Shown: piece by piece, positions 3,421 to 57,560 of the stretch
How positions within the stretch are numbered: position 1 is the stretch's first letter
How the letters are laid out: each line of letters opens with the position of its first letter
Assembly: GCA_008632985.1 (NCBI GenBank)
Contig: QPGO01000027.1
Coordinates: forward strand, 496,001 to 560,000
Source of the DNA: Psammoneis japonica
Taxonomy: Eukaryota
Reading direction: 5' to 3'
Length of the DNA: 64,000 bases
Made by a program: the position numbers and the translations under genes
The notes under the pieces: model-generated
Databases searched by the model: none
What the model saw: the letters and a program-made list of their open reading frames with translations, nothing else
What the model was told of the DNA's origin: nothing

Positions 3421-3845
3421 TTTTGATTCATGATGGAAAGGAAGAGGAGTCATTGGCGACTTCACGGTTGCTGCTGCAAAGGGCACATGTGATCGACGAG
3501 AACAGAAAAGGCCCATAGGAGGACCGTTGTTGACGTACCTTCCATAAGCGCAGCCATTTCGGCATCACGTTTGATTTGAATAGCCATGACGTTTCGTTGT
3601 GTTGCTTTGACAAACACGGTGTTCTCAAGAAATGAAAATTTCAAATCCAAAGCGAGTCGAATGAGTCATCCTAGTCACGCTTAGCCCGACCGCTTTCTTG
3701 ATCCGCGCTTTTCTCACGCACGACTGGGCCGAGCTCTCTACATACTTCTACTACTCTAGGGCCTCGTTTGAAGATGTGAGCAAGTCGTATCTTCGAATCC
3801 CACATGCGCATAAAACATTGAATCAAACTCAGACGCAGCTAAAGC

Positions 3846-27419: not shown

Positions 27420-27539
27420 CTTGTTGTTGTTGAAAGGTGTTGGCTCAGCAAAGAGAAAATTGAAATTGTGAACCAAGAGAGAGAGTGACAAGATGTTTCG
27501 CGTGATCTCAAGAGTCAGCATTTTTGGCAATTTTTTCAT

Positions 27540-29640
27540 GTTCGTGGCCGGTTAAAGGAAAAGAGAAAAAAAGAGGGGAATCAACCGTTGAACACACACA
27601 CACAATTGACCATGCAACCATGGCCAGAGTTGCACTGGCTTCTTTTGATCCAGGGTGGTTGCTGCAGGTGCAAAGAGTGGGGCACATTGCAGTTGCAGGA
27701 GGGTGACAATGTGGCACTGAGTGTGTGCCACCAGGCTGAGCAGCCCAGCTTGGGCATCAGCCAAGCCCTGCCAGGCCAGCTGCCCTGGCTCCAGCTGCTC
27801 TTCCCAGTGTGCGTGAGTTGTTGAAGGAGCACCACATTGACTCAAAGGCTGTGTTTTAAGTGGGGCAGAGAGAAAAAACTGTTGTCTTGGCTGGTGCTTG
27901 CTTCAGACCCTGCATCATGAGCGCAAGCTCCTCTTGAGAAATGAGCGAGAATGGCCATTTTTGGCGCCTCTCTTTGGTTGCCCACTTGGCATTGCCAACA
28001 AATCTTGAACCAAACTTCACTCACAGTTTCTTCACTCTTCAACCACAAAACCAGGTTCAACTTTTTGTTGGCTTCTTTGTGGCTGGGGTCACTGTTGCAG
28101 GCACAAATGGTGGGCACATGCCATGTGGCTGCTTGGCAACAAGAGTGTGATGCCAAGCATGTGCTGCACACCAAGGAGCCAAGCAGCCCAGCCCAGCTTT
28201 GAATGGAGCCCCAGGACAGCAGCCAACTCTGGGTGATCTCAGCATGGTGTGCTTGTTTGGGCTGTGCTGCACTCACCCCACAGTGCTCTGTGTTGTGGTG
28301 GCTTGTTGTGCAAGCCGTGTGGCTGAAGAGCCAGCAGCCAGCCAGGGCCCATCTTGCAAAGGCCACAAATGTTGACCCTGTGCAAAGCTGTGTGAGGGGG
28401 CAGGCACAGGGATTTGCAATGATGGCTTCACAGCCATTGGCCCCAAGTTGGCATTTGATTGGGATCCAGTGCTGAGGGGCTGTGAAGTGTGGGGTTGGGA
28501 GCCCAGCCAGCTCGCACTCTCTTTGTTGTCACAAAGTGCTGCCACAGCTGTCTTTGCATTGCAGCCAGCCAGGTGCGGTTGACCCCAAGTTGGCACTTGA
28601 TTTGGAGTGACTGCCAAGGAGCTGTGAAGTGTGGGGTTGGGCAGTCCAGCCAGCTCACACTCTTTGCTGACAGCAGAAAGCACTGTCGCAGCTGTCCTTG
28701 CGCACACATGGCCAGAGCAGCCTTGGCACATCCTGCTGACAAAACTGACAAAGACAGCGACTCTTGTGGTTGAGCCACTCAGCACGCAGGAGATCTGGGC
28801 ACACTCCTGGGAAGTCAAACAGGAAGGAGGGCTGAGCATTGCCGCCAGTGCCAGGCACAAATGTCAGCTTGTCTTGAGAGAGATTCGAGCCCACACAGCC
28901 CCGCGTTGGGCATCTTTGCTGGCAAAATGGAAAGCATTCTTGAGCACATTCTGGCATGTGGGCAGCACTGTCACCAAGAGGGCTGCTCTGCAGAGGAAGA
29001 GGGAAATGGGCAACAACATTTTGCAAGAACTGTTTTGTGTCAATGGTCGGGTGGGATGTGGCAGCATCATCTGGACTTTGATGGAGCATTTGGCGGACAA
29101 AGCTTGAGCACAGAGAGTTGTCCACGCAAGCTCCACAAGTGGCACTTTCCAAAGGTGACACCACACATGGGCCATGTGTTCATGCATCAACATGCCTCAA
29201 GCTGCAAGTCACACAAAAAAACCACCACCAACCTTTCAGCCAACCACCATCATGGACAGAACAGGTCAAGAGGTTCAAAACAAGAGCGATTCATTGACTC
29301 TCTTCTGGTTCCATGCATTCAAGAGCTTCTTGTCCTTCTCAAATGTTTGTTGTGCATTGTTGTCTCTTTTAATTCAAGTGCAAAGAGGAGTCACTTTTCT
29401 TGTTTCCATCTCTTGAGATGTTGTTGGTTGTTGAGTGATGCAACTTTTGTTGTCACATTTTTGGAAATGTTGGCAAACCCGATCACTGCTTGATTGTCAA
29501 CCCATTTGCTGTTTTAAGTCTCCATGGCATAAAATGCCATAATTCCAGAGCCCTCAATTGTTTCATCAAACGCAGTGCTTTGAAACACGTCCAACATCAA
29601 CTCGACTCAGTTGAAATCCCAGTTTGTGGGCGATGAAAAA
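27540..29640. other. TpA/CpG-depleted hypermutated island (decayed repeat or gene)
   Basis: Only a handful of TA dinucleotides in ~2 kb, few CG, strong TG/CA excess. Internal ~142-bp-period direct repeat (ccccaagttggca at 28441 and 28583). Confidence 0.85.
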
Positions 29641-29946
29641 TCACGAATGTCAAACAAATGGCTACTTTCGACATCAAGATCCCCGAGTTCAATCCAAATG
29701 TGACGGTACGCCTCACAGCTTATGGCCATGACACATACAAGCATGCCTCATTGTCATCGCGTCGAGCACTCGTATCGAAAATGCCGATAGATCAAAGTTC
29801 AGGAAAAGGATGGAATACAAATTCATTTGTGAATTCATTAGTGGCATTGGCGTAATGATATTTACGGCAGAAGCAATCTAAAATCCTTATTCATCATTGA
29901 CATTTCTGTATTGCTCAGATTTTGAAATCTGACCACTACCGTTAAG

Positions 29947-30079
29947 CATTTAGCTGTCTTTGTATGGAAGTGGAAATGACACTTAACGATTTACACTAAC
30001 CATTTAGCTTTCTTTGTGTCGAAGTGGAAATGACACTTAACGATTTACACTAACCATTTAGCTTACTTTGGCTCGAAGT
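29947..30079 (+). repeat. 54-bp tandem repeat, ~2.5 copies
   Basis: catttagct...gaagtggaaatgacacttaacgatttacactaac starting at 29947, 30001 and 30055 (partial). Confidence 0.9.
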
Positions 30080-37589: not shown

Positions 37590-37814
37590 CGAGTAAATCT
37601 AGCTGCCGAATAGGCTCAGCCACTCACAGTCTTAGTACGATAGCGCGAATACAACCAATAAGATGCTTCTAGGCCTGTTACAACTACGACAGATGCAACA
37701 AGTGAAAAAACCATTCCGTGGTCATCGGCATTTTAGTCCGCACACCAGTCATAGTTTCTCCACAGCACCTCCTAGAGCACACTAGACAGTCTCTGATACA
37801 TCGGATTTCACTCG
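37590..37814 (-). repeat. Copia 3' LTR (225 bp)
   Basis: Direct repeat of 44022-44245; preceded on the minus strand by PPT-like GAGGGGAC. Confidence 0.95.
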
Positions 37815-40800
37815 GTCCCCTCGAAATGTACCTGACTCGTAAGGCACAATTCGATCCAATGCTGCATCAGTAGTCCAACTCAAACAATCTTGACTTATCG
37901 ATCGACGTAAAAACCCTTGCTAGGGAAAAGTCGCCAATCCTCTGTGCATGGTGTAAACCCTCACTAGGGAAGAAACTCACCACCGCTCCACGTGTCCGTC
38001 TCAATGCGTGAACTTGTCTAACAGAAAAATTCCGTCTGATGGACGACATGACCTTTGTGAACAGATCGCAAAGGTTTGTCTCTGTTCCCTCCTTTGCAAT
38101 CCTAACAGTCCCCACAGCAACAGCTTCGCGGTTGCGGTGATGCGCAATGGAGTGATGCTTCTTCTTGAGTGTAGACTCAGGAATGGAGCAATTCTTGCAG
38201 ACGGCCTCATTGTCACAGAAGACATTTGTTGGCCCTTCGATCGGTGCCCCAAACATTCGAAGCTCACGTCGTAGACCCTCTATGAGCTCGATGGCATTCT
38301 TGAGTGCAATGATCTCAGCCCCAAATGTGCTAGCCTCCACGGCATTCTGACGCTTCGAGTGCCGCACGATGGGTGCCCAATCAACAAACATCAAGATGCC
38401 TGCATGGCTGCGACGATCGGCAACATTTCCGGCATGGTTGGCATCCACAAAACAATGTGTCGATGCCACATTACCTCGGGCTGGCGGTGCATTTGTCGGG
38501 ATGGCTTCTCTTGCATCTTGGTGGAAGTCACACCAGCCGCACTTCACGAATCGCGATTCATCGATCTTGGGATGAGCCGGATCAAATGCCACTTGGCGCT
38601 TTGGAACCTGTTTGAGGTGTGCAAAGATGTGCAACACCTGTTCCAGATGACCAATGCGAGGAAGAGCAAGGTGAGCAGACATTGACGAAACCTCCAAATG
38701 GACGTCCACTCCACCGAGTTCCACAGCCCAAACCAGTGCACCAATCAGCTCTTGATGGCAGTGAAGTCCTTCAGCATCCAGTTCGCCAGCAGTGTCTAGC
38801 TCGGGTTTGCATCCACTGCTCAATGGGGTTGTCGCCTTGCTGGGCAGACGTTTCCCCTCCTTGCCAAGCCTGTCCTCTACATTTTGGACAGCGGACTTGC
38901 AGCACTTCTCCGCAGACATTGCCCAACAGGTGGTCCCATCGGCTAAAGTCATCTTGGAAAGCGCATCACCGAGATGAGAATCCGGTTCGGCTACCTTGTC
39001 ACCCTTGAGCTTGAACTTGGACCTGATGCCGTCCATCGTCTTCATGGGTTCGTGACCAATTGACAGCACGTCGTCCACATAAACTGGAACGTGTTCGCAG
39101 CACTCGAATCCATCGGGTTTCACCGCAGGTTGCATCCACACATCCGGATCAGCCTTGCTCGGTTTGCACCCTAGATCATAAAGCGTCTCCGCTGGGAATG
39201 CCCCGAACGCTGCTCCGGAGCTCTTCAATCCGTGTGGAGCCCTGACCACAATCATGATGCAACCTTCATCCTCGCCAAACTCGGAACCTGCCCTGGTCCA
39301 AATCTTCTCCCTGCAAGGGGCAGCAAGGTGGGCGTTCTGGACATCACACGCAAAAGACTTGCAAGTCATTGAGCACAGCAAGCGTCAGTGCAATCCTTGC
39401 CAAATCCCGAGAGATGACAGAGGAGCAAGTGATGTGTGCGGGGGGTTTCAGCAGTGTGGCCTCCAGCCACCATGCGAGCTTTGCGGCGGAAGTTTTCTCC
39501 CAATTTGATGTCAAAAATCACACGGCACTTCACTTCCTGGAAACCAGGCGCCATGTCCTTAAGCTCCCCTTCACACTTGTCAAAAGCAACCCGCACATTC
39601 TTCATCTCCACACAAATGGCGTCCCACCATGGGGTGTTGCCATTTGCGCGATCGATCTGGATCGCCTCCTCGACACTCTTTGGGATCCGTGTGCCAAATT
39701 TGTGTGTTCGTAGCCAATGCTTCGACTTGACCTTCGCAATGGAACGCTTGCAGGTTTTCATGACATGAGGAACCCACCAAGCAAACGCTGCCTCATTCGA
39801 GATCTTGCGCTGAATGGCAAACTCGGCAACTTGGACTGGGAAGCTCTCCTTCACAATCTTCAAGTCGGTCCAAGTCGCACTTCCGTCCTTCCATTGGAAC
39901 AGGAGTTCCCATCCTTTGGTGGTCTTGCGCCTCTTCCGAACGCCTTGCTCGGTCTCAAAGAACTCGGATTCAGGAACGTCCCCATTGGTGCGGCAATCAA
40001 CGATCTCGTCAAATGAGACATGCCGGTTTCCGTCCTCGTCGATCTGAGCAAACACATTCATGGCAATGGAGTCAGCAGAGAGCGCAGCATGGTGCCCATC
40101 AGGGTGCTCTACCTCATGCATCCTTGCACCAAGGATGGGATTGTCATTGGCTGTTCCTGTCGGAATGCCATTGGCGTCTCTCAACCTCTTCGTGACACGA
40201 GCAAACTCAGGACCGTTGTCATCTCTTGGAAGCGCAACTTCCATGTTAAGGTGTCCCCAGTCCACCGCCTCCGGTGAGGCTTCCTCGTCTTTCTCATCGT
40301 CATCGTCATTTGTCACCTCCTCTGAGGACATGACACGATCACACTCATCAAGGAATTCATTGTCACATCCAAGGCAGTCTTTCCAGTCTTCGGGACTGAT
40401 CTTGCGATCCTCGTCATCGGGAAAGTCTTGCTCCTTCAACCGGCACTTGATCTCCTCGTCAAAACTGTCAAACTTTGCCTTTTTCTCTTGAGCAGCGGCT
40501 TCTAAATTGGTGACTCGTTGAACAGAAGTTCTCAAAATGACACTGCCTGTCTGTGTCAAAACGCAACACGACATGAGACTCCCTGTTCTGTGAGATGCAC
40601 CAAGCCACCTGCCGAGCTTCTCGTCCCCTGGACCGGCATTCTCCCTGCACCAGACCCAATCATAAAATCCAAAGTCAAGGTGCTCCAAGACATCCACGGT
40701 CTCTCCGAGAATGTTCTCCAGTGGTGCTCCAGCATCCAAATGATGGGCTCCAAGGAATGTGCGAGACATGGTCTCACATGTCCACATGAATCCGCAGTCC

Positions 40801-43800
40801 CATGGTCGCCGCGGCACTTGCTTCTTGACCATGATGCGGAGCCACTTGCGTCCAACCTCGCGCACAACCCCTTCTGCAGGATTCTGGTTGTGTCGATCGG
40901 GTTTGATGATGTGACAATCCATGCCCTCCTTGCGCACGGTCTTCATGAACTCCGTGCCAGGTTTCATTTGCTCCTTAGATCCATCCATCAGGAGTTTCTC
41001 TGGCACGCCAAATTCCTGGCAAAACATCTTGAGAGCCTCGCCAGCCTTGCTCTTCTTGTCCATGGGATAAATCGCAGCAAAGCATTGCTTGTTTGTAAAG
41101 ATCTGGGCATGTCGATTGCCCTCCAACGAAACCACCTTGCCATCGACCGTGTTGGTTGCCCATTCACCCCGTAACCTGGGCTTCGTGAACATCCGATCGG
41201 CCCGGTGGCGTCGACCCATTGGCATCAATGCTGACCTGATGAGCTTTTGTGCAGTCTTCTTGAGCATGTTTGCTGCTTGCTTGAGTCCTGTGCACCATCG
41301 TTCACTTGAGTCAGCAGCCAACACATCACTGTGTCTCTCCTTGGACATGAATGTCTTCGGGAGTGCTGAGTCTTTGGGTCATTCGCCGATTGTTTCCGTG
41401 GCAGAGATCTGGACTGTTGGCTCCGATTCCACATTGATGGCAGCTGTGAGCCTCGATTGGACTTGATCGACTCCACAAATGAATTGCTCATCGCAACAGT
41501 CCCCGGATTGAGGGTTGCTGAGGCAGGATCGGCTTTGAACTCGTGTGTCAGATTGGTGTGGATCGTCGCAATTGACCGAACTAGCTCCATTTCCTCCTCC
41601 GCAGATCGTCTAGTTCCAACAGATTTGAACTTGACGGTCTGTGGATCCCAAGGTTGTTGGGAGGTCATCTGGATCTTGGGGCATCAGTGCAACTCCTGTT
41701 CTGCAGGAGCATGAGTCACCGCAACGACATTGGTCCCCATGGCTTCAAGCGGCATCATGAAAGATCTGTCCTCTGTGAGGACACACAGTGGTGAATCGGA
41801 GCAGGGGTTGTCCTGAACCTTAGCACCAAAGTGCCGCAGCTGGTTTGGGTTAACCAGCGAGTGCTCCATGGACTCCGGCATCCACAAGCCCTCGTGGAAG
41901 ACCAGAATAAAAGTTGCTCCCGATGTCGGTGACGTCCACGCCGTGGCTGCCGAGACAATTGGGACACACTTGATGGAATCGCATCCCTCGTTAAAAGGCG
42001 ATGCGTCACATTCTCGTCCAGAACAACCTGAGAGGGTAAAGTTTTGACCAAAAACAGTGGTGTCAGCATGCGAATCCATTTCAAGGCATCCATGTTGTGC
42101 CTTTCTCATGTCACGGATGTGAGTGATTCGTGTGGTGTCAGACCGCATTGCCGAGACACGCCGTGTCGAGGCAACGACCTCACAGACGCGTTTGTTGCAG
42201 CCACGTGGATGCTGCTCCTTTGATCGATGCGGCTGTCCCCCGCCCCATTGTGGCAACCACAACAAGAAGTTTGTGATGCAACAAAGCAGGGTCCAGCTTG
42301 GCAGTCATTTGTTCTTTCCTCTGCACTTTTTGCTGCGACCACCGAATGCGTCTCCGGCATTGTCTCCGTCTTTGCCGCCAGCCCTTGATTCATCATTGCC
42401 AGAATCGGCGCTGGCATTAGTGTTCAGGGCGGAGATTTTGAGGTTCGCTTCTTTAAGCTGCGACGACAGCTTCCGATTCTTCTTCTTGAGCGACTTTACG
42501 GATGCAGCACGGCGTTTGGTTGGTTTGGGTTGTTTGGCAACACCTGGACGCACGCGCTCGTCGACAACCTTCTGTTTGTCCTCCTTGCTCAACTGGTGCC
42601 AATTTTTGTGGCATCCAGTGTCAATGGATCCATCCTCATCATAGATGGTTCCACCCTCTTTTCCTCCTCCAGAGGCGACTGCGGCAATCGCACGACGATG
42701 CACAATCGTCTCTGGAAGGGTGGCGACTTTGGCAGCAAGATGATTGGCCGCCGTGGTGAACGTGATGCCTCCTCCAAACTCATTCTGTGCCTTCAAGGTC
42801 TCAACCACTGCTTGCAGTGATTGGTGCTGCGTCTTCTCAAAAAGGATCCGCAATTTCTGGGCCTCCGTTTTCGGTTCGTCGTTCTCCTCAAAAATGTCAA
42901 ACATTTCTTGGAGCTTGTCAACAAACGATTCAAACGGCATGGCGCGCTCACTCTTGCAATGGAGGGTGTTCTCCATGTGCTCGGCTTCAGAGATGCGGCG
43001 GGAGGCACTTCCTTCTCCCTGGCAATGGTCACACAACGCCCTAAAGTCAACTCATCCATTCTGCTCATTCTTGTGGTCTTTCAACCATTGCTCACTGGGT
43101 GTGCCCGTGGTGAGGGACTCAATGAGCAAATGAACCGCACGAGTGTCAGCCTCGAAAGCTGGGCCTTGGAGGGGTGCACATGCAATGCACTTCTGGACAA
43201 AAGTGTTGTGGCCTTGGGGTCTGGGTGCATCGTTTTGACGCATGCAATGCACTGACGGCACGCCAGAGACTCCTGGCACAATGCCAAGCATGTTCGTCAA
43301 GCCGGTGCTCCACTTGACCCAATCCTTTTCGCTCTCTGACATCCCGGGTGACGCCTCTTTACTGAGAGAGTCAGCAGTGGTCTTGGTCAGGGAACGGATC
43401 TCGGCACGACTGAGTGCTGTCTGGAGAGCAGCACGGAAAGTTGCCTGGTCAAGCCCATCCAGAGCAGGGTTCTTGCTCACACGACCAAAGTCCTGCACCC
43501 AATGGATGAGAGCTTTGAGTCGACGACCACGGGCCAAACCAAAATGAATGCGCCCTTCAGCAACCGTCCTCCTGGCGTGTGATGACGCGAGAGAATCGAT
43601 GTCCTCTTCCTTGAGGTCTTCTAAATCGTCAAAAGATGCAAAGTCTGCCATGAGCGAGACTCGTTGAGCTGGATCAACAAATCCAATCCATTCAAGTGCT
43701 GTCTCGATGGGATCCGGAGGAGCAGCCGCCATGGTGGCACCCACACCAGCAGGAAAACAGAGTCATGTGAGAAATCATAAATTAAAAGGATGTCTCGGTC

Positions 43801-44007
43801 TGTGTTGACGACAACACATGGCCATCAGAAGCACGGAGACTGGCCATGTCTCCTCACTGCTTGTGCACTCACTGATGCCAGGCGACGACAATCATCGTGC
43901 ACCCTTCGATCGACCGGCGTTCATCGTCATGACCCTGCCACATTGGTGCGATCGTCTCTTCACAGTTGTCCAATGCTTTTCGTCAAACCAAACCTGAGTT
44001 GATGACT

Positions 44008-44018
44008 TGGCTCTGATG
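44008..44018 (-). other. Primer-binding site core, tRNA-iMet-like
   Basis: Minus strand CATCAGAGCCA, 3 nt inside the 5' LTR, versus canonical TGGTATCAGAGCCA. Confidence 0.65.
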
Positions 44019-44021
44019 GAG

Positions 44022-44245
44022 CGAGTAAATCTAGCTGCCGAGTGGGCTCAGCCACTCACAGTCTTAGCACGACAGCGCGAACACAACCAATGAGATGCTT
44101 CCAGGCCTGTTGCAACTACAACAGATGCAACAAGTGAAAAACCATTCCGTGGTCATTGGCATTTTAGTCTGCACACCAGTCACAGTTTCTCCACAGCACC
44201 TCCTAGAGCACACCAGACAGTCTCTGATGCATCAGATTTCACTCG
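44022..44245 (-). repeat. Copia 5' LTR (224 bp)
   Basis: Direct repeat of 37590-37814 with 15 transitions and one 1-bp indel. Confidence 0.95.
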
Positions 44246-44282
44246 CTGTCGCTCTCTGCTAGCTGGCCAGCTGCTCCACTAG

Positions 44283-44810
44283 CTAGAGAGCTGTCTGCGC
44301 TGCCTGCACTGCACTGCAGCATCTGCCTGGCTGGCAGCCCAAAACGTTTGCAGCACATTCTTCCTTCTCTCTTCTTGTGAAATGGCATGTTTGGAGAACC
44401 CCATTTGTGTCGAACGCCGTTGCACGAGTGAGCCAAACCTCAGTCAGAAAAGCACCAAAAGGCACAAGAAATCGCAACAAGGCAAACAGCACTTGACATC
44501 TCGCTGCTTCCATTGCCCGTGCCCCACCCAGGATCTGCCCCATCATCATCCCTGGAGTGGAAACCAAACCAATCACTGCCATGGAGTTCACCATGGGTGC
44601 CCCAGCCAGCAGCTCACACTGCTTCCCAAATTCTGCTCGCCCCAACAACAACAGCCACCGGCCCATGCCAAGCACAACAAAGAGCTCAACCTCGCTCGTC
44701 TTCTGCTCCAACAGACACCTGCAAGCATCACATTTGGCGACAGTGCAGTGGCATTGATGCAACAACCAAAGAAGCACTCCAGCAGCTGGGACAATGTGGC
44801 AGGAGCACCA
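44283..44810 (-). pseudogene. UPF0014/YbbM(FetB)/STAR2-type ABC permease remnant
   Basis: PMVNSMAVIGLVSTPGMMMGQILGG...AARCQ matches the family motif GLVSLPGMMTGQILGG...AARYQ; frameshifted. Confidence 0.8.
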
Positions 44811-44811
44811 G

Positions 44812-47800
44812 CAAAGCATGTGTTGTCAAGTGGATGAAATCACACTTGTTCACAATTGCACATTGTTGCTCACGTCAATCACGCGACAATCGTGGATGTG
44901 CGCAATGGTCAGATTGGTCACACAGAAAAGATCAGAAGTTTAAAATTGCAAACACAATTGGCAGATGATGTTGAAATACAAGATTTCAATTTCAGTGCAT
45001 CTGGACAATCTGTTGTCACGATTGGATCATCCGAAAGGCCTTTGCTCTCTGCAGGAGCAGCGCAGCAGCTTTGGGCCATTGAGAGCTCCTTAAGAGTGTC
45101 CCAAAATGGCAGCAAAGGATCTGTCTCACAATTTTCCACTTTTCATGATTTGTTCTGCTTTTGTTTGTGCTCATTCTTTGAGCATGGTGCATTGTGCACA
45201 CACACCAGAGAAGGTAAAAACACAAAAATGAAGCTTTTGCCTCATGCAACCAACGGCAAGTCCATTGTCAAGCAGGACAAGATCACACCTCAACCGCTGG
45301 AGTCAATTTCTGAGCCCAAGACTCTCAAATTGAGCCATTGCATGAAGATGGAGCAGTGTTTTTATCCCAGAAACAAGAAGAGCGGCGCATGCATGATCAA
45401 CATCGAGCACTGCAACAAGCAGGGAGCTCCAAAATGCATCGCATTTATGAAGACTGCACAAAACTTTTGATCAGACAGAACATCAAGGAGCAAGCTGATG
45501 AGTTCCACAAGATGCTTGTGTTGTTGCAGGGAGACACTTTTCAAGTTTTGGAGACAAGGCAATGAACATTGACAAAAAAGCCGAAAGAGCCTTCAAAAAG
45601 TGCCTGCATTGTCTCTCAAGCCATGCACTCCCAAAAAATGCACTTCAGAATCAGAAATGACATCTGCGTCATGATCTCAAAAAGCCAGACTTGACAAAGA
45701 TCTGAGAACTTGCAACCTGGGCTCAGGAGGTCAATGAAGATTTCAAGCTCTGTTCTCCCTTCAAGTCTGACCAGAATCTGGACAAAGATGAGCTCAAGGA
45801 CATTGTCCACAACCTTGCACCTTGCAAGTGGTGTCACCAGTCAACGCCACAAGGTTTTGAAATTCTGAATCATGTGTTTGATGAGTTGGTTGAGTTTTTG
45901 GAACATCTGGAGGTTGCAGGAGACACACTCAACAAATCCATTTCAAGGATGACAGCAAAGGCAAGCCTGGTTCCAAAACCAAAGGTGGCTCCAGAAATTG
46001 TTCCAAAAATGGTCATCTCTCTGGCACAAAATAGACTGAGTCCAATGAGCACCAGTGCAGTTGTTTTGCAAGAAAAACACTCACATCATGGATCAGTGCT
46101 GGGTCATCAAACATCTGGCAAAAGAATGCCAAGACAATGCTGAAAATGCAACTCAAAGCAACAGTGCACCAATGGCAATTGCATGTGGCAGTCTCGCAGC
46201 AACATTAAAATGCCACTCCAAAAGGAAATTGAATGCTGTGATCAAACAGGTGGTTGACAATTCTCTCAAGGCAAGTTCCAATGTAAAGAATTTGAAGCGC
46301 AAGAGCAAAGAGAATGTGACTCTGACACCCTCAGCAAGGAAAACTGTCAATTTGAGAAAATCATGCACAGCGACTCTGAAGAATGACTGGTGCCACTCGA
46401 GGAGTCTTGTGCACTGCTGGATGTTGGGAAGCCCAAAAAGGGCCAAAGCAATTCATGCCAGTCCAGCAGTCATTGTTTGTGTGAACACCTGCTCCTTGGA
46501 CAAAGCAAAAAACAAGCCTCTGTGCATTCTCCTCAACAGTGGAACATTGTCTGCCACAATTTTGTGCAATTTGTTCATGCAGAAACTGAGATCAAAACAA
46601 TCGTCTTCATGACTGACAGCGAGCACACTAAAATCCAGTTCACATCACCTGAATTGATTGAGTCAAAATGACACATGTTGACAACACCCCTCTTCTTCTT
46701 TGAGTTGTTGTGATGTGATCATGGGATGCAACTTGATGTCCAGTCATGGGATCAGACCAGACTTTGCAATCAAAGAAATCAAATGAGAGGACGCAACTGC
46801 ACCCATGAAGAGTGTTGATGCACTCTTCAATGCTGTTGTTTTCAAGTTGATTGCGGATCACATTGAGGCCTCTCATGCTGTGATTGGCCTCAATGACAGG
46901 GTCAGTTGGATCCTTGACTCAGATTGTCATTCTCCTGACCTTGATGATGTGACTGCAGCAGCAACTCATCCAACTCCAGAGGAGCAGAAACAGCCAAACT
47001 TTCTCCTGGAAAGATTTGAGAACCTTTTTGATGGTTCTCTGGGCAAATGGATTGGGAGAAACCTGTGGATCTCAAGTTGAAATTGGGCACAAATCCGTGT
47101 CTGGCAAAGCCATTTCCTGTGCCACAAGAATTGGATGCAACTGCTCAAAAGGAAGTTGAAAGACCATGCAAGTTGAAAGTCACAAGAAAAACATTCTGAG
47201 TGGGCAGCTCCAACCTTCACTCAGCCCAAGAAAAATGGTGGAGTTTGGTTTTTGTCCAACTTCTGTGAGCTTGACAAATGGTCAGAAGCTGGATGGAGGG
47301 TTTTGTGTGTGCAACCTCACTGGATTTGAATGTGGGACATTGCCACATTGAATTGACACCACATGCACATCGCTTGTGCACACTCATGATGCCACGGGGC
47401 AAATGCAAGCACTCACTGCAGACTCCCTGTGGGAATCTCTGGAGCTCCAGACATTTTTCAGGAGCATGTGAGCAAGCTTGTGGCAGGCTTGGAGTTTGTC
47501 AGAATTCATGCTGATGACATGCAATGCCTGACAAAAGGTGACTTCAAAGATCATCTCAGAAAGCCTGAGATGATGCTCGTGTGGCTCCAACAAGCCGGGT
47601 TAAAGGTCAGTTTTTGCCAAGCCAGAAGTGGGCTGTCTGGGCTTTCACATTGCGCAAAATGGTGTCAGACCAATGCCTGAGAAAGTGGAGACAATCCCAG
47701 CAACTGCAATGCCTGCAACTTGCCAGGAACTGCAATGCTGCATTGTGGTGTGATCAGCTGTTGTTGAGACATGTGGCCTTGAGGATCATCCAAGGTGAAG

Positions 47801-50800
47801 TGGCAACGGATCAAAAAGGAACAAAAAGCCTTCAAAAACATGAAGCAAATTGTGTCAAAAGACATGTCATTGTCACATCCGACCCTTTGAGACATGCGCT
47901 GATGTGAGTGATTCTCAATTGGGGGCAGTCATTGCACAGAACAACTGGCCTGTTGCTTTCTGCAGTCATCAAATGGAGTGCAGACATGCCACACTGCAAC
48001 TGAAAAAGACTTCTGTCCACAGTGGAAACACTCAAAAAATTCCAGAATGTGCTGTTTGGCCAACAGATTGACAAACACGGATCGCAAAAATCTCACTCAT
48101 GAGAACTTCACAACAGACAGAGTCATGCGTTGGTGACTGACAACAGAAGAATGCAGCCCCGAATTGGCTCATCTCAAGGGCAAGGCAAACATCATCGCAG
48201 ATGCAGTCAGCTGACTTGCTGTGAAGAAAATTGAGCCCATGGAAAAATCTCAGCAACGAAGATCCAGCTGCAAAGGTTGCACTCAAATCCTGTGACAATG
48301 TCTTTCTGTTGACACACAAAGCTCTTGATGCTGAACAAAAATGGGACAAAGACATTCTCTCCAAATTGTTGGATGCAATGTGTCATGCAAAGACTTTTCT
48401 TGGAGGTGAGTGAGACCAGTTGCTCACATGCAACAAGCACAAATTTGTTGCACCAAAGACATTGCAAAGAAAGTCGGCAATGCAATCAGCCGACTTGCTG
48501 TGAAACAAACTGGGACATTGCCGAAAATGACTGAGTTGGTCACCTCGCACATTTGTGCCACATTGAAGATTGCGAGCACAAACGGAACAGTGTGATGCAC
48601 ATGGAGCCATTTGAGAAACTTTTTCCAATGTTGCTTGCAATGTCCAAACAATGTCTTTCAGACATGTTGCTCATTTCCCACTCTTAAACCAAGAATGCTC
48701 AATCTCAAACTGCACAGTTTGAGATTTGCAAAAATGCCAAACCAGCCAGTTTAAGATTTGTCACAATCTCAAACTGTTTTGTCACAATCTGAAATCATCT
48801 CTAAATCTGAAGCAAGGCAATTGTGAGCTGACAAAGCATTTGAAAGGAAACACACATGTGAAATGCATTGAGAGAGCAGAGTCCATTGTTCGTCAACAAG
48901 ACAATTTGAAATTGTCCATTGGCAAAACATGATGTGCCTCTTTTTAAAGAGGGCAGTGGCTGTTTTTCAGTGACGACTTCTCACAAGTCATGACAAGTGT
49001 TTCAAAAACAATGAAAGCAAAAAGCACATCAGGGCAGTTTCTGACTTCATCAACAGGTTTGGCAAGACCCCAATGGAGTCTTGTCAGTGCCACAGGTGTT
49101 TTGTGCATTCAAAAACCCCAACACAGCACTGTCTTTCTCATTGCTGTTGATGGGGCAAACACACTCATGCAAGCAAGCCCAAGCACCCTGCTTTCAACAA
49201 GAATGCAAAATGTCCCTGTCACAAATTCAAGCAAGTGGTGTTGTCATGCAAACTCAGGATGTCAATTTTTACAAACAACCTTGCAAAACAAGCCAGGTTG
49301 TGCGCCATTGACAACTGACAAGAAGGGCTGCATTGTGGCCACTGCGTTGTTTCTGTTGGATTGTGGCTCACATGATTGTGAGTGCTGCAAAGACTCTGCA
49401 ACAGCACTTTCTGAAAAACTTTCACAGCCAAGGTCTGCGCATCAACAAAGCAGTTGTTTGCACATGACGACTCTTTCAATGGAAGGGATTGGGAACCAGC
49501 GCATGTTGCATGGGGCCAGCTCTTTATGCGGTCAAAGGGACCTGTCACAAATGGCAAAGATCCCATTGCCGTTTGTCATCTCGATGGCTTTGTCAATCTT
49601 GTTAAAGTGTGTTGTCAAAATCTTAAACTGTGTCATCGAAAATCGCACTGTGTTGTCTAAATCTTAAACTGTGTCATGAAAAATTGCAAAATCTTGAAGA
49701 AAACGTCAAAATCTTAAACTGTTTTGTCCAAATTTAAACTGTGCAGTTTAAGATTTGTCTGAATCTTAAACCACACAGTTTGAGATTCGCAAATCTTAAA
49801 CTGGAACTGTCCACTCTGAAACTGCGAGTTGTCTTGTAGAAGGGACAAACTGTGAATGGCCAAAGTGCTCTTTTGTGGCATTCGCACTTGACGACATTTT
49901 TGGCCAAAAGACTTTTTCATTTGACAATTTTTTTTAACATGGTCACATGACACATCATGAAATGACTGTTTCAGGTCATTTCCAGGATGTTCCAGAACCT
50001 GTGGAAAACCTCAGCAGCTCTGAAGAGTTGGCAGCAAAGGTGACCCCCAAATCCTGCAACAATGTCTTTCCATTGACATGCAAAGTTCTGACGCAACATG
50101 TTGTCCAAAGACTTTTTGTGGAGGTGAGCAAGATCAAATGCTCACGTGTCACAAGGAAAAAATTGCCACACCAAAGATGCTGCAAAAAATGGTGACAGAT
50201 TGGTGTCATGTGCACCTTCTGCATCCTGGCACAAATTGAGTTGAAGAGACAATCTCACAACACTTGTGGTGGTCACCTTGTGTGATGACATGCAAAAACA
50301 CATGTCAAAATGTGGCGCATGCCAGACATTCAAGAAGAAACAAAAGAAGGAAATGTGGACATTTGCCACCTGAGTGTGCAGAGTCAGTGCCACGGGAAGT
50401 GGAGACCTTGTTGAACCATGCAAGATGCATCGCAAGGGCAAAAAGAAACCCCAGTCCTGAAATGTTCAACAATGGCAGATCCAGCAACAGGATGGTTTGA
50501 AGTGGTGGAAACTCCAATGAGGGGTCAACAACCATTGCTGGATTGTCAAAAGGAGCATGGTCAAGCAGACATCCTTGGCCACATCATTGATTGCTTGTGA
50601 TTGTGGAAGTGAGTTCATCGGACATCAATTTAGAACAATGCAGCCCAAGATGATTGTGGCATCAAGTGCAGCCCCACAACTGCACAAAATCCTCAAGCAA
50701 ATGCCATGGTTGAGCACATGCATCAAGTGCTGGTTTGCATGACACACACACTTTTGATTTACAAAATGCACCCCTGGATGCTCAGAACCCATTTGAGGGA

Positions 50801-51533
50801 ATGCTGTCAGCAGTGCAGCCTTTGCAGTGCATTTGACATGTTCAACCGAAACATGATTTTCAGTGTGTCCAACACGTTGCTGACTGGAAGTTTGTCCAGA
50901 AATGCAAACAAAATGTTGCAAATAAAAATGACGCAAGAGAGAATGCATGGCACACTCTTTGCACATGCGGCGTGGGAGAAAAGATCCCACTCAAAAACAA
51001 TTCTCAAAAATTAGAACAGCCCTGTGCTGGGCCTTGCATCACAACAACTGCACACACCAATGGCGCAGTGCAGATCAAAAGTGGTGATGTTGTTGACACC
51101 ACCAACATCCTTTGAATGAATCCATTTGATGAATGACTCCAATGTGCAATTGGGGAGGTGAGTGCAGCATGCTTTGTCAAAGAGATGAAATTGCGCACAT
51201 TCACAATTGCACATTGTTGCACATGTCAATCATGTGACAATCATGGATGCATGCAATGGTCAGATTGATCACACAGAATTGATCAGAAGTCTAAAATTGC
51301 AATGCAATTGGTGAACAATGTTGACACATGAGATGTCAATGCAATTGCACCCGAACAATCTGTTGTCATGATTAGATCATCTGAAAGGCCATTGCTCTGC
51401 AGGAGCAGCACAACAGCTTTGGGCCATTGAGAGCTCCTTGGGAGAATCCCAAAACTGCAGCACAGAATCTGGTCTCACAATTTTTCACTTTTCATGATTT
51501 GTTCCACTTTTGTTTGCACTGGTCCTTTGAGCA
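44812..51533 (+). mobile_element. Heavily decayed, composite Ty3/Gypsy LTR retrotransposon
   Basis: Diverged LTRs ~44812-45184 and ~51163-51533; TGG after the 5' LTR; PPT tggggaggtgag at 51151. SEWAAPTF..PKKNG, GISGAPDIFQE, IHADD (YxDD), DVSDSQLGAVI, KGKANIIADAVS, integrase remnants. Confidence 0.85.
48680..49830. mobile_element. Insertion bounded by AATCTTAAACTG motif/palindrome clusters
   Basis: Motif clusters at ~48680-48810 and ~49617-49825 in both orientations; interrupts Gypsy pol. Confidence 0.55.
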
Positions 51534-54500
51534 CAGTGCAAGTGAGGTTGAGGCCAAACAATTTCACAGAGCACCAAAGTTGGCACACAAGTGCAGCTCT
51601 TGTCAAAAGTGCAGCCAACATGCCCAAGAGCCTGGCCTTGAAAAACTCACCCAAGGCTGTCAAGAGATGCTGATGGCTTGAGATTGATTGACTCTGGACA
51701 ATTTAAGATGGCAGGATTCTTTGTGCAGGTGCTGTTGATTTCTTTTGACTTGCTCCACATGGGGTTTGTTCTCACCCACACCATCATTGACAACTTGCCA
51801 CTCATTGCCAGGTCATCCATGCAGCAGATCAAAGAGAAAGGAAAGCAGTCCATGGCTTTGCACCATTGCTTGCTTTCAAGCTTGGCTCCATCAGTGCTCA
51901 ACTTTCTTGCAATGAAAAGCAAGACACTTGGAAGATTGGCAGTGGGTGAAGCAAAAGCAAAAGTTGAGTTCTCTGTGGCTTTGGAAGCAACATGCAACAT
52001 CAGACATGCCTCCATTGTGACTTGCCTTTTTCATTGACAGCATGCCAAAAACATGCCATTGAAAACAACAAGTGTGGTGCCTGATGTTCTGGCAGACATT
52101 GGCTTTGTTGGGTGACGAGCCATTGTGCCATGATGAGTCTGGTGTGATTTCTGCACAGAGGCCACAAACAAGCCAGGTCTGTGGCTGCAGGGGGGGGGGG
52201 GGGGCATTTCACACAGCAGCATGCATGCTTAGATGCCAATGTGGGCAATGGCAACGCAGGGTGTTGGAGCTTCACAGCTTGCTGACCAGTGCGCGTTTGG
52301 TCTTGCCATCACTGAACTCTCTGTGTGGCTTGCAAACACATCACCATTTTGCTGTCAACTGGGCGCAGAAGCTAAAAAGTGTGAGCACAAGACCTGCAAC
52401 TCAACCCAAGCTGCAAACACAAACTTGCCACATTGTCCACAATTGTCAGTGCATCTTTCCACTGCAACTTTGCCTCTCCTGCAAAAACCACCTCTGGCCC
52501 CAATGTTCCAACACACTTCTCATGAGCCATCAATTGATTGGCCTTGTGCAAATCAAGAAGCATGGAAGGATGACATTTGGAGTCCATGCCACCCAATGCC
52601 ACATCAACTGTTCTGCCAGTTTCCATGGTCCGCATCATCCAACTCCAACAAAAAATGAACATTGTCAGGGCAATTCATTCTCACATGCCTGACCCAACCA
52701 CATTTCCAGCATGCAATGCGCTCCTTCTCTTGCTCTGCATGAAACTTGTGAGGCAGGTTTCCTGCCATGCAGGTGCCCTCCAACACCTGTGGTGCCTCCT
52801 TGGCTGACTTGGGACAAATGTCAACCCCCGGTGTGAACTGCTGATGTGGGTCTTTGAAGACTTGCCAATGTTCCTTGGTGCCTTCCATTGGCATCACCAA
52901 CAGCAACTTGTTCCTTTCTTCATTCTGGGTGTGTCATCAGCATCCTTGCCAAACCCATCTTCCTTTCTTGGTGATTTCTTCTGGGTTGACCCTGCCATGG
53001 GACATTTGTGCTGCTTCAACCATGCTCACAAACCAACTGCAACAGGAGTCTTGAAGTGACAAATGAGCCCCAATTGCTTCCAAGCCTTGACCACCTGAAC
53101 ATGTGGGGGTTTGTCTTCTCATTTGCATCAAACAAGATCAACTTGAGAACATCCAGCAGTGCTGCCACATCCCACTCCTTTGCAACTCTTGAAAACTCAG
53201 TCACTTCTTCAAGTTTGTGACAAAAACCTTTGCTTTCTGCATCTTGCAGATTGCACTCTGTTTCGCACTTGTCCCAGATTGACTTCTCCTTCTCTCACAA
53301 AGCAACATTGCTGTTGACTGCTGTCACCGTGTCAACTGGTGCAGATTCTAAAAAGTGAGCACAAGACCTGAAACTCAATCCAAGGCTGCAAAGACACAAA
53401 CACACCACATTGTTCACAATCATCAATGCATCTTTCCACTGCAACTTTGTCTGTCTGTCCTGTGAAAACCACCTCCAACCCTGATGTTCCAACAGCGGGT
53501 GAAAGAGTGGAAGATGGACATGGATGGGTGGGGACAGACTGGATTGATTGGAGCAACAAGGTGAGTGCACCAGTTGAGATTTTTTTTGCAACACTTCAAC
53601 AGCTGCACACATCTGCAGCACCTGTGTGTGGGGTTGTTCTGCAAAGCTTTTAGACCACAAACTGCGGGGTGGGAAGAAGCTTCCCAAAGTGCAGGACAGC
53701 CCACCCAACAAGGAGCTGTCATGGACTTCAGCACCCACATGGCCACACCCTCTCTTCAACCATGTTGGTCTCATCTGAACATTCAACAATTGACTTCAAC
53801 GGCCCTCAATGACAGGTGGTTCACATGCCAACCAGTGCTTTCAAGTGTCCTCAAAAGGCAATCTGACAGCTTTGCATTCTTTCAAGATGGCTTGCTGCTT
53901 TCTGCCAGGGACCAGGAGACCCCAAGCTGCTTGACACTTTGTCTCTTAGCTGCAAGAAGCATTTGAGCAGCCCCCTTTCAAGGCCCACACACTGCTGTTT
54001 TCTGGCCCTGTGAGATGGTTGGCTGATGCCCAAAGAGCACTCCACACCACCCATCTTGGGCCGCCACACTTCTCCATTGCTTGGAGGATCTAAAATCTGC
54101 AACTTCAGAGCCTCCAGAGAAAGTGGCAGATGATGAACTCAGCAAGAGCAGCAGCAACTTGCCACTTGTTGCTTGCTGTGCAGCACGACTTGTCCTTCTT
54201 GCAACAACTTGTGCTTTGACAGCCAAGCACAAGGGGCAGAGCCTGGCCAGCTCTGAGCAGCTGCTGCAGCAATGAATGTCATTTCATCAGTCAATGCTTT
54301 TTCACCTGCATGAGCAAGAGTGCCACTTCATTCAATCTTTGTTGCCTGCTCTGACTGTCATGACATTGCACCAAGTTTGATTTTCCTTTCCTCCAAAATT
54401 TTGCAATCTGTGGCTCCACCCCCTCACTGCATTTTGATTTTCCTTTCCTCCAAAATTTTGCAATCTGTGGCTCCACCCCCTCACTGCATTTTCTGCATTA

Positions 54501-57500
54501 GATGATGCTGTTTTTAGATGCACATGTCCAATCTCTTCACTTGCTTCATCATGCTTGTTTTAGTCACACTGTTTGGTTGCACCGCCACTCCATTCTCTGG
54601 TCATTTTTGCAATGATGCAGCCAGATTCTTTTGTTTGCCCTCAGTGCCAACATGCCAGATTTGCTCAGTCTTGCTGCCATCACTGTGATGCAGCAACTGG
54701 CCCAGTGAAGGCTTTCTGTTGTCTTTGTTGTGTGGACAAGGTGTTTTGACTCTGAAAGCCAGGTGCAGTGTGTCACCTTTCCCGCCACTGCACTGGCTTC
54801 ACTTCAATTCCATCCATCACAGAGTGCAGTCATCATCAAGAGCTTTTGCCTTGCTGTTGTCCCCAGCTTCTTTTTGCAATGTTGCCCAGCACCTCCAGAA
54901 GTGTGCCCCCTGCCATGACTTGGAGGACCTTTCATGCCGAGGATCAAGTTCAATGCTTCATGGTGCACTGCTGTTGGGCACACCAGTTTCTTGTCAGCAT
55001 CACAAAACCAATGTTGTCATGGGGAGAGACAGCCAAGAGGTTTTTTTGGTTAAAAAGAAGTCCCACAGTGAATGCAGAACCAAGCTCACCACTGTGTGAG
55101 CAAGTGCCTCCACCAGAAATGCAGCCAAGTTGATGTTCCTCAGTGTGAGCCATGTGGCATTTTCTGGCACAACAAAAGGGACAGGCTTGTCTGCAGTTGT
55201 GGTGGGGCATGACAGGGAAACAAACAATGCAGCACCAGCACTGTCAAAATGGTTTGGCACAGGCACATTGAACAAAAGCAATGTGAGAAGAAAAACAAAA
55301 CACTGCCAATGCTTTGTGGGTGGACATTGAGCCAAAGTGATCATTGAAAATTGGGTCTGCTTTCTGAGTGACAGAAATGTCAGCTGCAAAGATGGCACAT
55401 GTGTCACTTTTGTTGAGCATCACATCAAAATGCAAAACTGGTTGTCAAGAAAAAATGATTGACACAGCACAACTTGGAATGAAGCTGGACATTGTCCCAG
55501 GTGGGCAAGGTGCCAGTGTCACAGAATGTGATGAAAAAGGCACTCAGCTGTGAAATTTTGATCCTGGGTTTGAAAAAATGAACACACACACACCCGGGAG
55601 CACTCATCACTTGTTGCAGCACCATGTTGAAACAGAGAAAATGCAACAAAATGTGCTCAAACAGGAGGCACCTGCAAATGTTTTACAAAATCAAAAATGG
55701 GAGCATGCCAATGACAACAAACAAAGACACTTCATTTCACCACATCACTCCTGGTGTCACAAACAAGAGAAGACAAGGCAAAAAATGCAGAAACAAGATG
55801 TGGTGTGGCAGGTCAAAGAAATGGAAGGAACAGTGTTGACAGGTGTGCCAGAACAAGATGGTGTCAGCACAATGTCAAGCAGCACGTGATGACACAGCAT
55901 GACACACACTGCAATGACAGAGAAACTGGCATGTTTGCTGCTTCTGTTGTGATTGTGGATTGTGGCTGCTTTGGGCCAAATTGCACTGCCACAAGCCCTG
56001 CACTGGTGGATTGTTGGCAGTGCAAACAAACAAACAAACAAACAAACATGGAGAGATGAGCCATTTCTGGCTGGGGCAGGCCTCCCCCCAGCAGCAGGAG
56101 CACTGACAACATGCTCAAATGTTGGCTGACAGTGTCATCCAAGGTCTTTGCCATGTCAACGCACTTAAAAACTTTGTGACAAGACTGTTGACAAAGCTGA
56201 GAAATTGGAGAAGGATGATTGCAGCACAGGAAACTTGCAGTGAAGATGTGAAGAACACAAAGCATGCAGCTCAAGGCAGGGGCAAAGCAGCAAAGCAGAG
56301 CCAAGGCTGGAGCAAAAAAGAAGGAGCACAGAAGTTCAACAAGCTGTGTGTGTGTGGATCAAGCAAGACAGAGAGAGCAATGAGGGCTTCAGTCTGTGGC
56401 TCAAGGAATGGAGGTGACAAAGGCAAGCTTGTGAAAGGAAGAAAAGAAGAAACAAAAGAGGAGCAAGGCAAGGAAGGAGAGAGAGAGGAAGGGTGGGCCA
56501 AGAGCCAGTGGGGGGCAATCTGCCACTGCAGCTGGTGGCTGCAGGAGTGGCAGCTGAGGCAACAAACCAAACGAGTGTTCAAGCAAACATTCAAGAGTTG
56601 GCTGCAATCTGGATCATGGTGAAAACACCAAGCAAGAAATGGGAATTTGGTTTTGTGTCATGGATGGATGGCAGGTTAAAAGGGTGCTTTTGAAGCAGAC
56701 AGGACAAACAAAAAATGCAGAAGGACACTCCAGGTCACATGGCTGCCTCAAATGCAAGTGAGAGCTGCCAAAGAAACAAGAAAGCACAGTTGTGACACAA
56801 GGTGAGCTTTCAGATTTTAAATCCAGGAACATGGGACAAAAGGCAAGAGTGCCCAATGCTGAAAGTCAGGTGCAATTTAGAGTCAGGGATGCCATGAACC
56901 TGGCCAGTTTTGAGCTGAAAAGAAAGCCGAAACCCAACTTGTCAAGTGACACTGTCCTGAGATTTCAGCTGGGAAATTGCCAGATCACATTGATGGCCGG
57001 CGGTCAGAGCCAGAATGCTGGCATCCCAGATGCGCTGCCAAGGAGCTGGACATTAATTTGCTGAACCCCCACAAAGGCCAAAGTGTCTGGTTGTTGTGTT
57101 GTTGCAAGTCACTTCAAGCTTGCAAGAGCCCCTCTTCCATGTTCTTTTCACCGGATGAGGCACAAAGCTTCACACAGAGAAACATTGAACAAGCTTTCTC
57201 ATTGTGTGCTGCTGGAGGGAAAAAGCACCACCACAAATTGTGCTTGAATCAGCAAAGGACTTTTTTGCACACCCCCACGTCGTTCACTCCTCTTGCAATG
57301 CCAACTTGTTGGCAAACAACCCAGCTTGAGAGGAAGCCACAGGCAGGCCTGGCCACACAGCCTGCAGTGACAGCTGCAAGGAATGAACCAAAAGGAGGCA
57401 TTGCAATTGTGCTGTGAGCAAAACCAGTGCATCTGGCAGTGCATTGACACACAAAAATCCACATGGTGTGTCGTGCTCCCCTCTCTTTTTCCTCTCTTCA

Positions 57501-57560
57501 TCATCCAGCCACAAAACATTGCAAAATTTTGCTTGCAGGACTTTGATTTGCTCCTTCATG
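51534..57560. other. Mosaic of unidentifiable hypermutated repeats
   Basis: TA and CG nearly absent. ~150-bp diverged direct repeat at ~52352-52495 and ~53329-53477; GWS..EG..KFN.L-like remnant near 56310. Confidence 0.7.
54376..54492 (+). repeat. Perfect 57-bp tandem duplication
   Basis: tttgattttcctttcctccaaaattttgcaatctgtggctccaccccctcactgcat at 54376 and 54433. Confidence 0.95.

Follow-up and report, generated by a model that had tools for sequence, protein, structure and literature searches.

Within the 64,000-nucleotide (nt) stretch of Psammoneis japonica DNA analyzed here (contig QPGO01000027.1, positions 496,001 to 560,000, forward strand; hereafter the window, which is part of a 91-Mb assembly) lies an island of nested mobile-element relics that has been erased of TpA (TA) and CpG (CG) dinucleotides. 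The contexts in which TAs survive there are a real mechanistic fingerprint that arises from flank-dependent mutation rates: in young relatives of such elements TTAA is retained at 359 of 564 sites and ATAT at 28 of 568, which bears out the fingerprint that the first-pass annotation had suspected. In these relatives, TA loss consists almost purely of transitions, strikes either strand at random, obeys a flank rule and extends to adenines on the same strand within 2 nt of the hit. The reading that best accounts for TA erasure, to which we assign a probability of roughly 0.6, is an adenine deaminase that prefers 5′-TAY (Y, pyrimidine) and acts through a window of 3-5 bases. The features of the island are as follows.

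44250..57560, no strand assigned: TpA- and CpG-erased island of nested mobile-element relics, in which nearly all surviving TAs contain TAA/TTA.
44815..51540, plus strand: decayed long terminal repeat (LTR) retrotransposon, taken as Gypsy-type on its layout and motifs.
44815..45191, plus strand: 5′ LTR of this relic, with TTAA retained at 45090-45093.
51166..51540, plus strand: 3′ LTR of this relic, reading TTGG at 51438-51441 against TTAA in the other LTR, a tandem A>G at +1 on the same strand.
48640..49850, no strand assigned: inserted repeat element with a reiterated TCTTAAAC motif, the source of 9 of the 22 TTAA survivors (pseudo-replication).
51700..57540, no strand assigned: more TpA-erased DNA, of which 51700-53300 is a multi-copy relic.

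The island (44250-57560) contains 54 TAs (observed/expected, O/E, 0.057) and 122 CGs (O/E 0.17), while the gene-bearing flank at 1-27000 has a TA O/E of 0.57 and a CG O/E of 1.02. Counted on both strands, the 54 survivors comprise 22 TTAA, 17 CTAA/TTAG, 5 GTAA/TTAC, 4 ATAA/TTAT, 3 CTAG and 3 others, with trinucleotides of 70 TAA, 25 TAG, 7 TAC and 6 TAT. Residual TAs do sit mostly in TAA/TTA contexts, as had been noticed by eye: in 44300-57540 these contexts hold 48/51 TAs vs 578/1518 in the flanks, and TTAA plus CTAA hold 39/51 vs 171/1518 (odds ratio, OR, 26, p=1e-25). A single repeated motif block supplies 11 of the 51 survivors (9 TTAA, 2 CTAA), and with this block removed the figures are 28/40 for TTAA plus CTAA (p=2e-17) and 37/40 for TAA/TTA. 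The depletion is not an assembly artifact, because the island sequence recurs in short-read contigs from run X1, which could be the source sample, with 2-5 mismatching letters per 550-1000 bases, and 12 in 2938, across eight island pieces. The 15 listed island differences between run X1 and the assembly, among them a CA/TG swap and six of CpG type, lie at 45481-45482 and 13 other sites and are alleles or strains with sites resolved differently.

The mutation spectrum was taken from 69 retrotransposon copies of four families (Gypsy, 18+14 copies; Copia, 9, 9 and 19), which are best-scoring matches and no random sample. Retrieval with the island relic gave 40 relatives, and 18 copies at 90-95% identity were aligned to L060, a real copy that still has 277 TA and 272 CG and serves as the Gypsy reference; older copies and one near-duplicate were left out. 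The relic at 44815..51540 itself is 70-72% identical to this young family. Replication used 14 of 15 additional Gypsy copies (L120, at 89%, was dropped) together with three Copia families, which were found with PF07727 and each aligned to its own most TA-rich real copy. Low-change kilobase tracts in the Gypsy family were excluded by a two-state model that is itself based on TA loss; the Copia families were left unmasked, and sites with one outcome across all copies were dropped from their context counts. Two island repeats have only old or short relatives and were excluded from the spectrum, and the Copia family of the window itself (15 of 17 aligned copies), being without a TA-intact reference, entered a singleton test only, in which A>G changes numbered 39/8557 at AA, 45/10494 at CA and 39/10828 at GA.

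Single changes at TA in these copies are transitions in 5823 of 5854 cases (99.5%), with 31 transversions. Across all families, beyond the two extremes given above, TA is retained at 525/843 CTAA, 258/550 CTAG, 430/1021 GTAA, 667/1604 CTAC, 248/835 GTAC, 188/819 ATAC, 306/1361 ATAA and 191/909 ATAG sites, and the extremes of this ranking agree in each of the four families, so that the context bias seen in the island is confirmed at tetranucleotide resolution over many copies. A per-strand hazard model of 470 isolated sites (site-bootstrap standard deviation 0.07-0.11) assigns log-hazards, relative to the mutated A, of -0.67 for A, -0.32 for G, +0.50 for C and +0.49 for T at +1, along with +0.29 for A at -2, -0.43 for T at -3 and -0.41 for A at +2. 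From these values the target reads roughly A-T-[A]-Y; TTAA, a poor site on both strands, therefore survives. The per-strand hazard at TA is 0.67 vs a rate of 0.0042 at AA, about 160:1, and TA hits show no transcription-strand bias (-0.05±0.06). Far from TAs, non-TA A>G changes carry the same +1 pyrimidine preference (113/34933 vs 72/43304, OR 1.95, p=8e-6).

When retention in the young copies is extrapolated to 5.6% survival, it predicts 30% TTAA and 23% CTAA, where 32 and 38 are observed, and it over-predicts CTAC (14 vs 2) and CTAG (7 vs 0). Of the 17 island survivors that could be aligned to L060, at 70% identity, just 4-5 have a TA opposite, and therefore some survivors are newer TAs or lineage differences. 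At L060 positions 643, 3274 and 343/5142, TAC-context sites are retained in 60-100% of copies, which the flank model leaves unexplained. The same site is resolved independently across copies, with a median pairwise concordance of 0.61 vs a site homogeneity of 0.65; together with LTR pairs that differ from one another, this places most TA hits after insertion. One such pair lies in a younger element that adjoins the island.

37590..44245, minus strand: younger Copia-type LTR element, with open reading frames (ORFs) on the minus strand and reverse transcriptase/RNase H motifs recognized by eye.
37590..37814, no strand assigned: left LTR of this element, TAs retained.
44022..44245, no strand assigned: right LTR, with 10 TA transitions, 4 CG transitions and 1 tandem A>G.
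44040..44045, plus strand: GAGTGG, where the left LTR has GAATAG, in which the TA hit is A>G at 44044 and its same-strand bystander at -2 is A>G at 44042.

The Copia label of this element (TA O/E 0.19, CG O/E 0.75) rests on layout and motifs, and a Pfam scan of its ORFs gave no match at 1e-3. Its LTR pair, which falls just outside the interval 44250..57560 discussed in the first-pass annotation, differs by 15 substitutions, all of them transitions, with 10 at TA, 4 at CG and one AAT>AGT; in each case it is the right LTR from which the TA, CG or A is lost. All six ATA sites of the pair have changed (6/6), as had been stated. The LTR that adjoins the island thus bears all 15 losses and the distal LTR retains its TAs, and one TA-rich end is also seen in several other copies. 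The single AA to AG change had been taken to fit the WA motif (W, A or T), and is better described as a same-strand tandem with the TA hit two bases 3′ of it (GAATAG to GAGTGG). The window offers a second tandem in the 3′ LTR of the Gypsy-type relic (TTAA to TTGG, 51438-51441).

Tandem changes of this kind are general and confined to one strand. Private non-TA A>G changes (bystanders) concentrate at positions -2, +1 and +2 relative to a TA that was struck on their own strand, with 35/1522 in the discovery set vs 12/2187 where the hit is on the opposite strand, and 34/1802 vs 4/2339 in the independent replication (p=4e-9); beyond ±3 nt the effect is absent, the same-/opposite-strand ratio there being 1.0. 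Under a somewhat looser definition of a private change, A>G occurs beside a new TG at 79/3286 sites vs 63/20105 beside an old TG that was always TG (p=3e-31), a control that rules out sequencing error and an intrinsically mutable TG context; these changes go back to 76 separate events, spread over 65 sites in 43 copies of all four families. Bystanders are A>G in 79 cases, with no A>C or A>T and no excess of other substitutions, and they occur on both sides of the hit (35/1452 at -2, 25/895 at +1, 19/939 at +2). The bystander's own 5′ base is irrelevant (at -2: A 13/620, C 14/471, G 8/361). CpG cytosines show no sign of being co-deaminated on the strand of the hit, with 34/1169 changed there vs 39/1031 on the opposite strand.

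Adjacent TA sites are linked far more strongly. Of 202 double losses at TATA, 151 end as TGTG or CACA, the products of hits on one strand, where independent hits in sequence would give 45% (p=8e-18). Same-strand outcomes prevail at 11 of the 12 sites, and we infer that about half of these double losses were single events. Strand coordination of TA hits stands at z=6.0 at 2 nt and |z|<=2.2 at 3-12 nt; pooling of distances 2-5 nt in the first strand test hid this effect, which appeared once distances were resolved. Mutated TA pairs 3-200 nt apart show no strand coordination. Given that about 2% of non-TA neighbors change vs about half of TA neighbors, the second event also reads the TA motif.

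Pure transitions, random strand choice, a strict 5′ T, a 3′ pyrimidine preference and two-sided co-conversion together point to a base-modifying enzyme with a footprint of 3-5 bases, and adenine deamination would be the simplest chemistry for it; adenine deamination, which the first-pass annotation had named, for a modified adenine, as its alternative, fits the spectrum. In the mechanism we propose, a host activity aimed at repeat domains would act on genomic DNA after element insertion and turn adenine directly into a base that codes as G, most likely by deamination to hypoxanthine, with A>G fixed at replication. The activity would require 5′-TA almost absolutely, favor TAs whose A is followed by a pyrimidine and whose T is preceded by an A, be slowed by A- or T-runs and by an abutting CpG, and attack either strand at random. 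One encounter would open or flip only about 3-5 bases of one strand, converting in passing about 2% of neighboring non-TA adenines and about half of adjacent TATA partners. TTAA, CTAA and TTAG would survive as poor sites on both strands, and CpG decay would be a separate, slower process in the same domains.

Several observations weigh against this proposal. TA and CpG loss co-vary at the kilobase scale, and TA loss is 0.01-0.04 higher near mutated CpGs (+0.025±0.012 within 10 nt). At abutting sites TA is lost at 112/130 where the CpG is mutated vs 945/1579 otherwise; the loss at abutting mutated CpGs (0.78-0.88) exceeds the 0.70-0.73 expected from copy rate, and the link is gone at gaps of 1 and 3 and partial at a gap of 2; the excess at gap 0 fits release from a protective context. 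In the Copia families, A>G changes far from TAs show the +1 pyrimidine preference only weakly (58/23687 vs 47/26501). AA>AG exceeds GA>GG, the OR being 1.03 in the first set, 1.70 in replication and 1.48 (p=0.001) for all sites together. At distances above 3 nt from TA-class sites the rates are 63/22886 for AA, 71/29356 for GA and 51/25999 for CA (AA vs GA, OR 1.14, p=0.49), and the overall AA excess is thus due to TA neighbors; the secondary AA to AG excess that had been anticipated is present over all sites and no longer significant away from TAs. No enzyme could be tied to TA erasure in a search limited to PF00383 (9 matches in the genome) and PF14437 (5 matches), and the deaminases examined look like housekeeping enzymes, some of them acting on free bases. 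The genome's ADAT2 and TadA-like genes resemble ordinary tRNA editors, and the TadA-like protein has Asp at the equivalent of position 108, where an Asn is conserved in all eukaryotic ADAT2 (PMC10354150). Amphioxus BjADAT2 deaminates C as well, and known DNA activity of TadA/ADAT needs single strands or hairpin loops, as described in the same source (PMC10354150); here C>T near hits amounts to only 18/4246. Finally, sequence alone cannot separate damage to A from damage to the T on the partner strand.

This last point opens the way to a thymine-based chemistry, in which the T of TpA would be oxidized or adducted to a G-pairing base (e.g. 5-formyluracil, from a TET/JBP-like dioxygenase), with neighboring same-strand Ts hit occasionally. 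A>G at TA is T>C at TA on the other strand, so all counts fit this chemistry equally, and a thymine lesion that mispairs with G would yield nearly pure transitions. We know of no sequence-specific thymine mutator of this kind, and the preference for TAY over TAR (R, purine) agrees with a TadA-type enzyme (PMC12528748), which makes the thymine route doubtful. A Tet_JBP search of the genome was blank, but the control search was blank as well, so the result says nothing on absence.

Unlikely, too, is a glycosylase or nickase at TpA followed by a 1-5-base refill in which an iota-like polymerase places G opposite T. Very-short-patch repair would yield a short same-strand window with A>G bystanders, and the genome has five Y-family polymerase loci, one of which scores similarly to eta and iota. 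Against it, bystanders are equally frequent 5′ and 3′ of the hit, include no transversion (0/79) and come with no excess of other substitutions, and the gap between non-TA and TA neighbors shows that the second event is still TA-reading. A two-step route, with TpA in repeats first marked by an adenine methyltransferase and the modified base then losing its amino group, through an enzyme or spontaneously, could yield the extreme TA specificity and the pure transitions, and the flank rule could be that of the writer. We regard it as improbable, as spontaneous decay of separate marks would leave neither same-strand tandems nor changes at non-TA neighbors. The N6-methyladenine described in eukaryotes lies at ApT in transcribed genes, which also counts against it.

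The mechanism favored by the first-pass annotation, in which T:G mismatches from deaminated 5-methylcytosine (5mC) would undergo MSH2-MSH6/EXO1 patch excision and Pol eta would make A>G errors at WA while refilling, so coupling CpG and TpA loss, is now highly improbable. Its ingredients could be present: the genome encodes a Pol eta homologue (L093, E=2e-50 to Pol eta structures) and C5 methyltransferases, and an MSH2-like MutS gene lies in the window itself. TA and CpG loss share kilobase tracts, AA>AG exceeds GA>GG overall, and at a hypermutation target, too, A>G is most frequent in ATA (10.1101/783118). In that system, a patch is cut out during mismatch repair and filled in again by Pol eta (PMC6423074, PMC7884765), and at BCL6 A>G, A>C and A>T make up 28, 13 and 12% of mutations (10.1101/783118), vs 31 transversions in 5854 changes here. 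Pol eta would place AA near the TA rate and above GA and CA, whereas TA exceeds AA about 160:1 and AA equals GA far from TAs; an excised patch predicts same-strand runs, which are absent at 3-200 nt. The literature searched offered no usable number for tandem errors by Pol eta. Almost the whole Bigelowiella spectrum, 230 of 231 changes, is A/T>G/C at TpA (bioRxiv 10.64898/2026.01.13.699255).

The proposed coupling to CpG fails likewise. Proximity to CpG is a better test than loss totals, because repaired mismatches would keep the CpG; per copy, TA loss runs at 61-88% vs 3-25% for CpG. CpG terms on TA hazard are zero or negative (-0.06±0.11 within 3-10 nt; -0.19±0.10 per five CpGs for density), an abutting CpG lowers it (-0.54±0.15 and -1.12±0.20), and the strand of a TA hit agrees with that of a nearby mutated CpG about half the time (192/409, 455/887, 1533/3113). 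Of the clustering of TpA changes near CpGs that had been envisaged, the small residual near mutated CpGs described above is what was found. Least credible of all is survivor bias, in which TAs newly created or kept by selection would mimic resistance, for although few aligned island survivors face a TA in L060 and one repeated motif supplies nine TTAA, pre-existing TAs in young copies show the same retention order in all four families, TG>TA gains run at about 2 per 1000 vs losses of hundreds per 1000, and new TAs persist only at low hazard.

Independent Gypsy insertions also contain tracts of about 1 kb that have lost almost no TA; their edges are sharp, their positions recur, and they have rare substitutions in common. 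They lie at element positions of about 2850-4100 (L054, L069, L071, L082, L106-L112, L114 and L115) and about 4250-5060 (L064, L065, L072, L073, L075, L108 and L112), the L106-L115 set being biased by the choice of query. CpG change and non-TA A>G are about 5-fold lower in these tracts and other classes about 2-fold lower. CpG loss there is 26/3166 vs 535/13000, and since the tracts are short of both losses, the two processes share domains or age. Young copies may have converted these stretches, a domain may be protected there, or the assembly may have produced them.

Elsewhere in the genome, a single frame (L101:313-1785, minus strand) fuses guanine-deaminase-like and thymine-dioxygenase-like 2-oxoglutarate-Fe(II) domains; it was rejected as a candidate for TA erasure, as it matches free-base guanine deaminase and thymine dioxygenase, with Atlas matches below 0.8, and it probably serves nucleobase salvage. 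PF00145 C5-methyltransferase matches number 27, of which several are broken and clustered on contigs C297, C10 and C28. In the window, the MutS domain III gene (16366-18018, minus strand; best solved match MSH2, E=2e-22) has among its neighbors an exo/endo/phosphatase ORF as well as BAH and Cdc6/ORC-like AAA ORFs. A second, small TpA/CpG-erased block is intergenic (27500-29400), and all three of its surviving TAs are TTAA. Tandem duplications are found at 54376-54489 (exact, 57 nt) and 29943-30050 (near-exact, 54 nt), and, among the matches listed, the named relatives of a flanking epimerase are diatoms (Seminavis, Mayamaea, Trieres, Attheya and others) at 72-83% identity.

The measured spectrum removes the obvious repair-error explanation and replaces it with a testable signature, namely a bias toward 5′-TAY, strands hit at random, pure transitions and co-conversion of same-strand adenines up to 2 nt away; it can be used to score candidate enzymes, knockouts and the mutation list from Bigelowiella. 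Transposon dating and annotation are distorted by this process, with copies diverging by 4-10%, largely at TA sites. It is tempting, at odds that we place a little below even, to see here a diatom genome-defense enzyme that deaminates TpA adenine in duplex DNA and at each encounter opens only about 3-5 bases; its targeting to silenced repeats would not depend on CpG decay, and it would be common to diatoms and Bigelowiella, across the SAR (stramenopiles, alveolates, Rhizaria) clade. If so, it would be an adenine counterpart of repeat-induced point mutation (RIP) and APOBEC and a natural double-strand A-to-G editor, of interest for the evolution of genome defense and for base editing.

The process resembles fungal RIP in being a repeat-targeted, DNA-level, saturating transition mutagenesis with a dinucleotide rule. 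RIP turns CpA into TpA, in contrast to the diatom process, which removes TpA, with TG>TA at just 80/39617. With Pol eta somatic hypermutation it shares a peak of A>G at TA, ATA as the top context and action on both strands (PMC6423074, PMC7884765, 10.1101/783118). There, AA is a hotspot too, about half of A:T changes are transversions (25 of 53 percentage points at BCL6) and errors fall in excised patches, whereas in the diatom AA is at background, 99.5% of changes are transitions and coordination ends at 2 nt. Enzymes of the TadA/ADAT type acting on DNA likewise give pure A>G, an order of YAY over YAR, as in the engineered TadA ABE8e-YA (PMC12528748), and bystander conversion of nearby adenines, and a natural enzyme, amphioxus ADAT2/3, deaminates adenine in DNA (PMC10354150); they accept CA, whereas in the diatom CA changes at the background rate and co-conversion reaches about ±2 nt.

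A literature search that covered subscription journals poorly gave no report of TpA erasure in diatoms, and TpA-only hypermutation is described in a single published case that we found, a 2026 preprint. In Bigelowiella natans, integrated DNA of nucleocytoplasmic large DNA viruses (NCLDV) as well as virophages undergoes TpA-restricted hypermutation at a de novo rate of about 1000 times background, active in some lines only, for which an ADAT-like deaminase was proposed (bioRxiv 10.64898/2026.01.13.699255). The main text of that preprint makes no mention of context, tandem, adjacent, polymerase, CpG or diatom, and its supplements may hold tandem changes. New here is the same-strand tandem A>G window around TA hits. 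In both organisms the process changes genomic DNA on either strand, almost exclusively by A>G/T>C at TpA, and is confined to foreign or repeat domains, as seen here in the O/E of the island and transposable elements vs the gene-bearing flanks; unlike Bigelowiella, the diatom has LTR retrotransposons as targets, erasure near saturation and CpG decay alongside.

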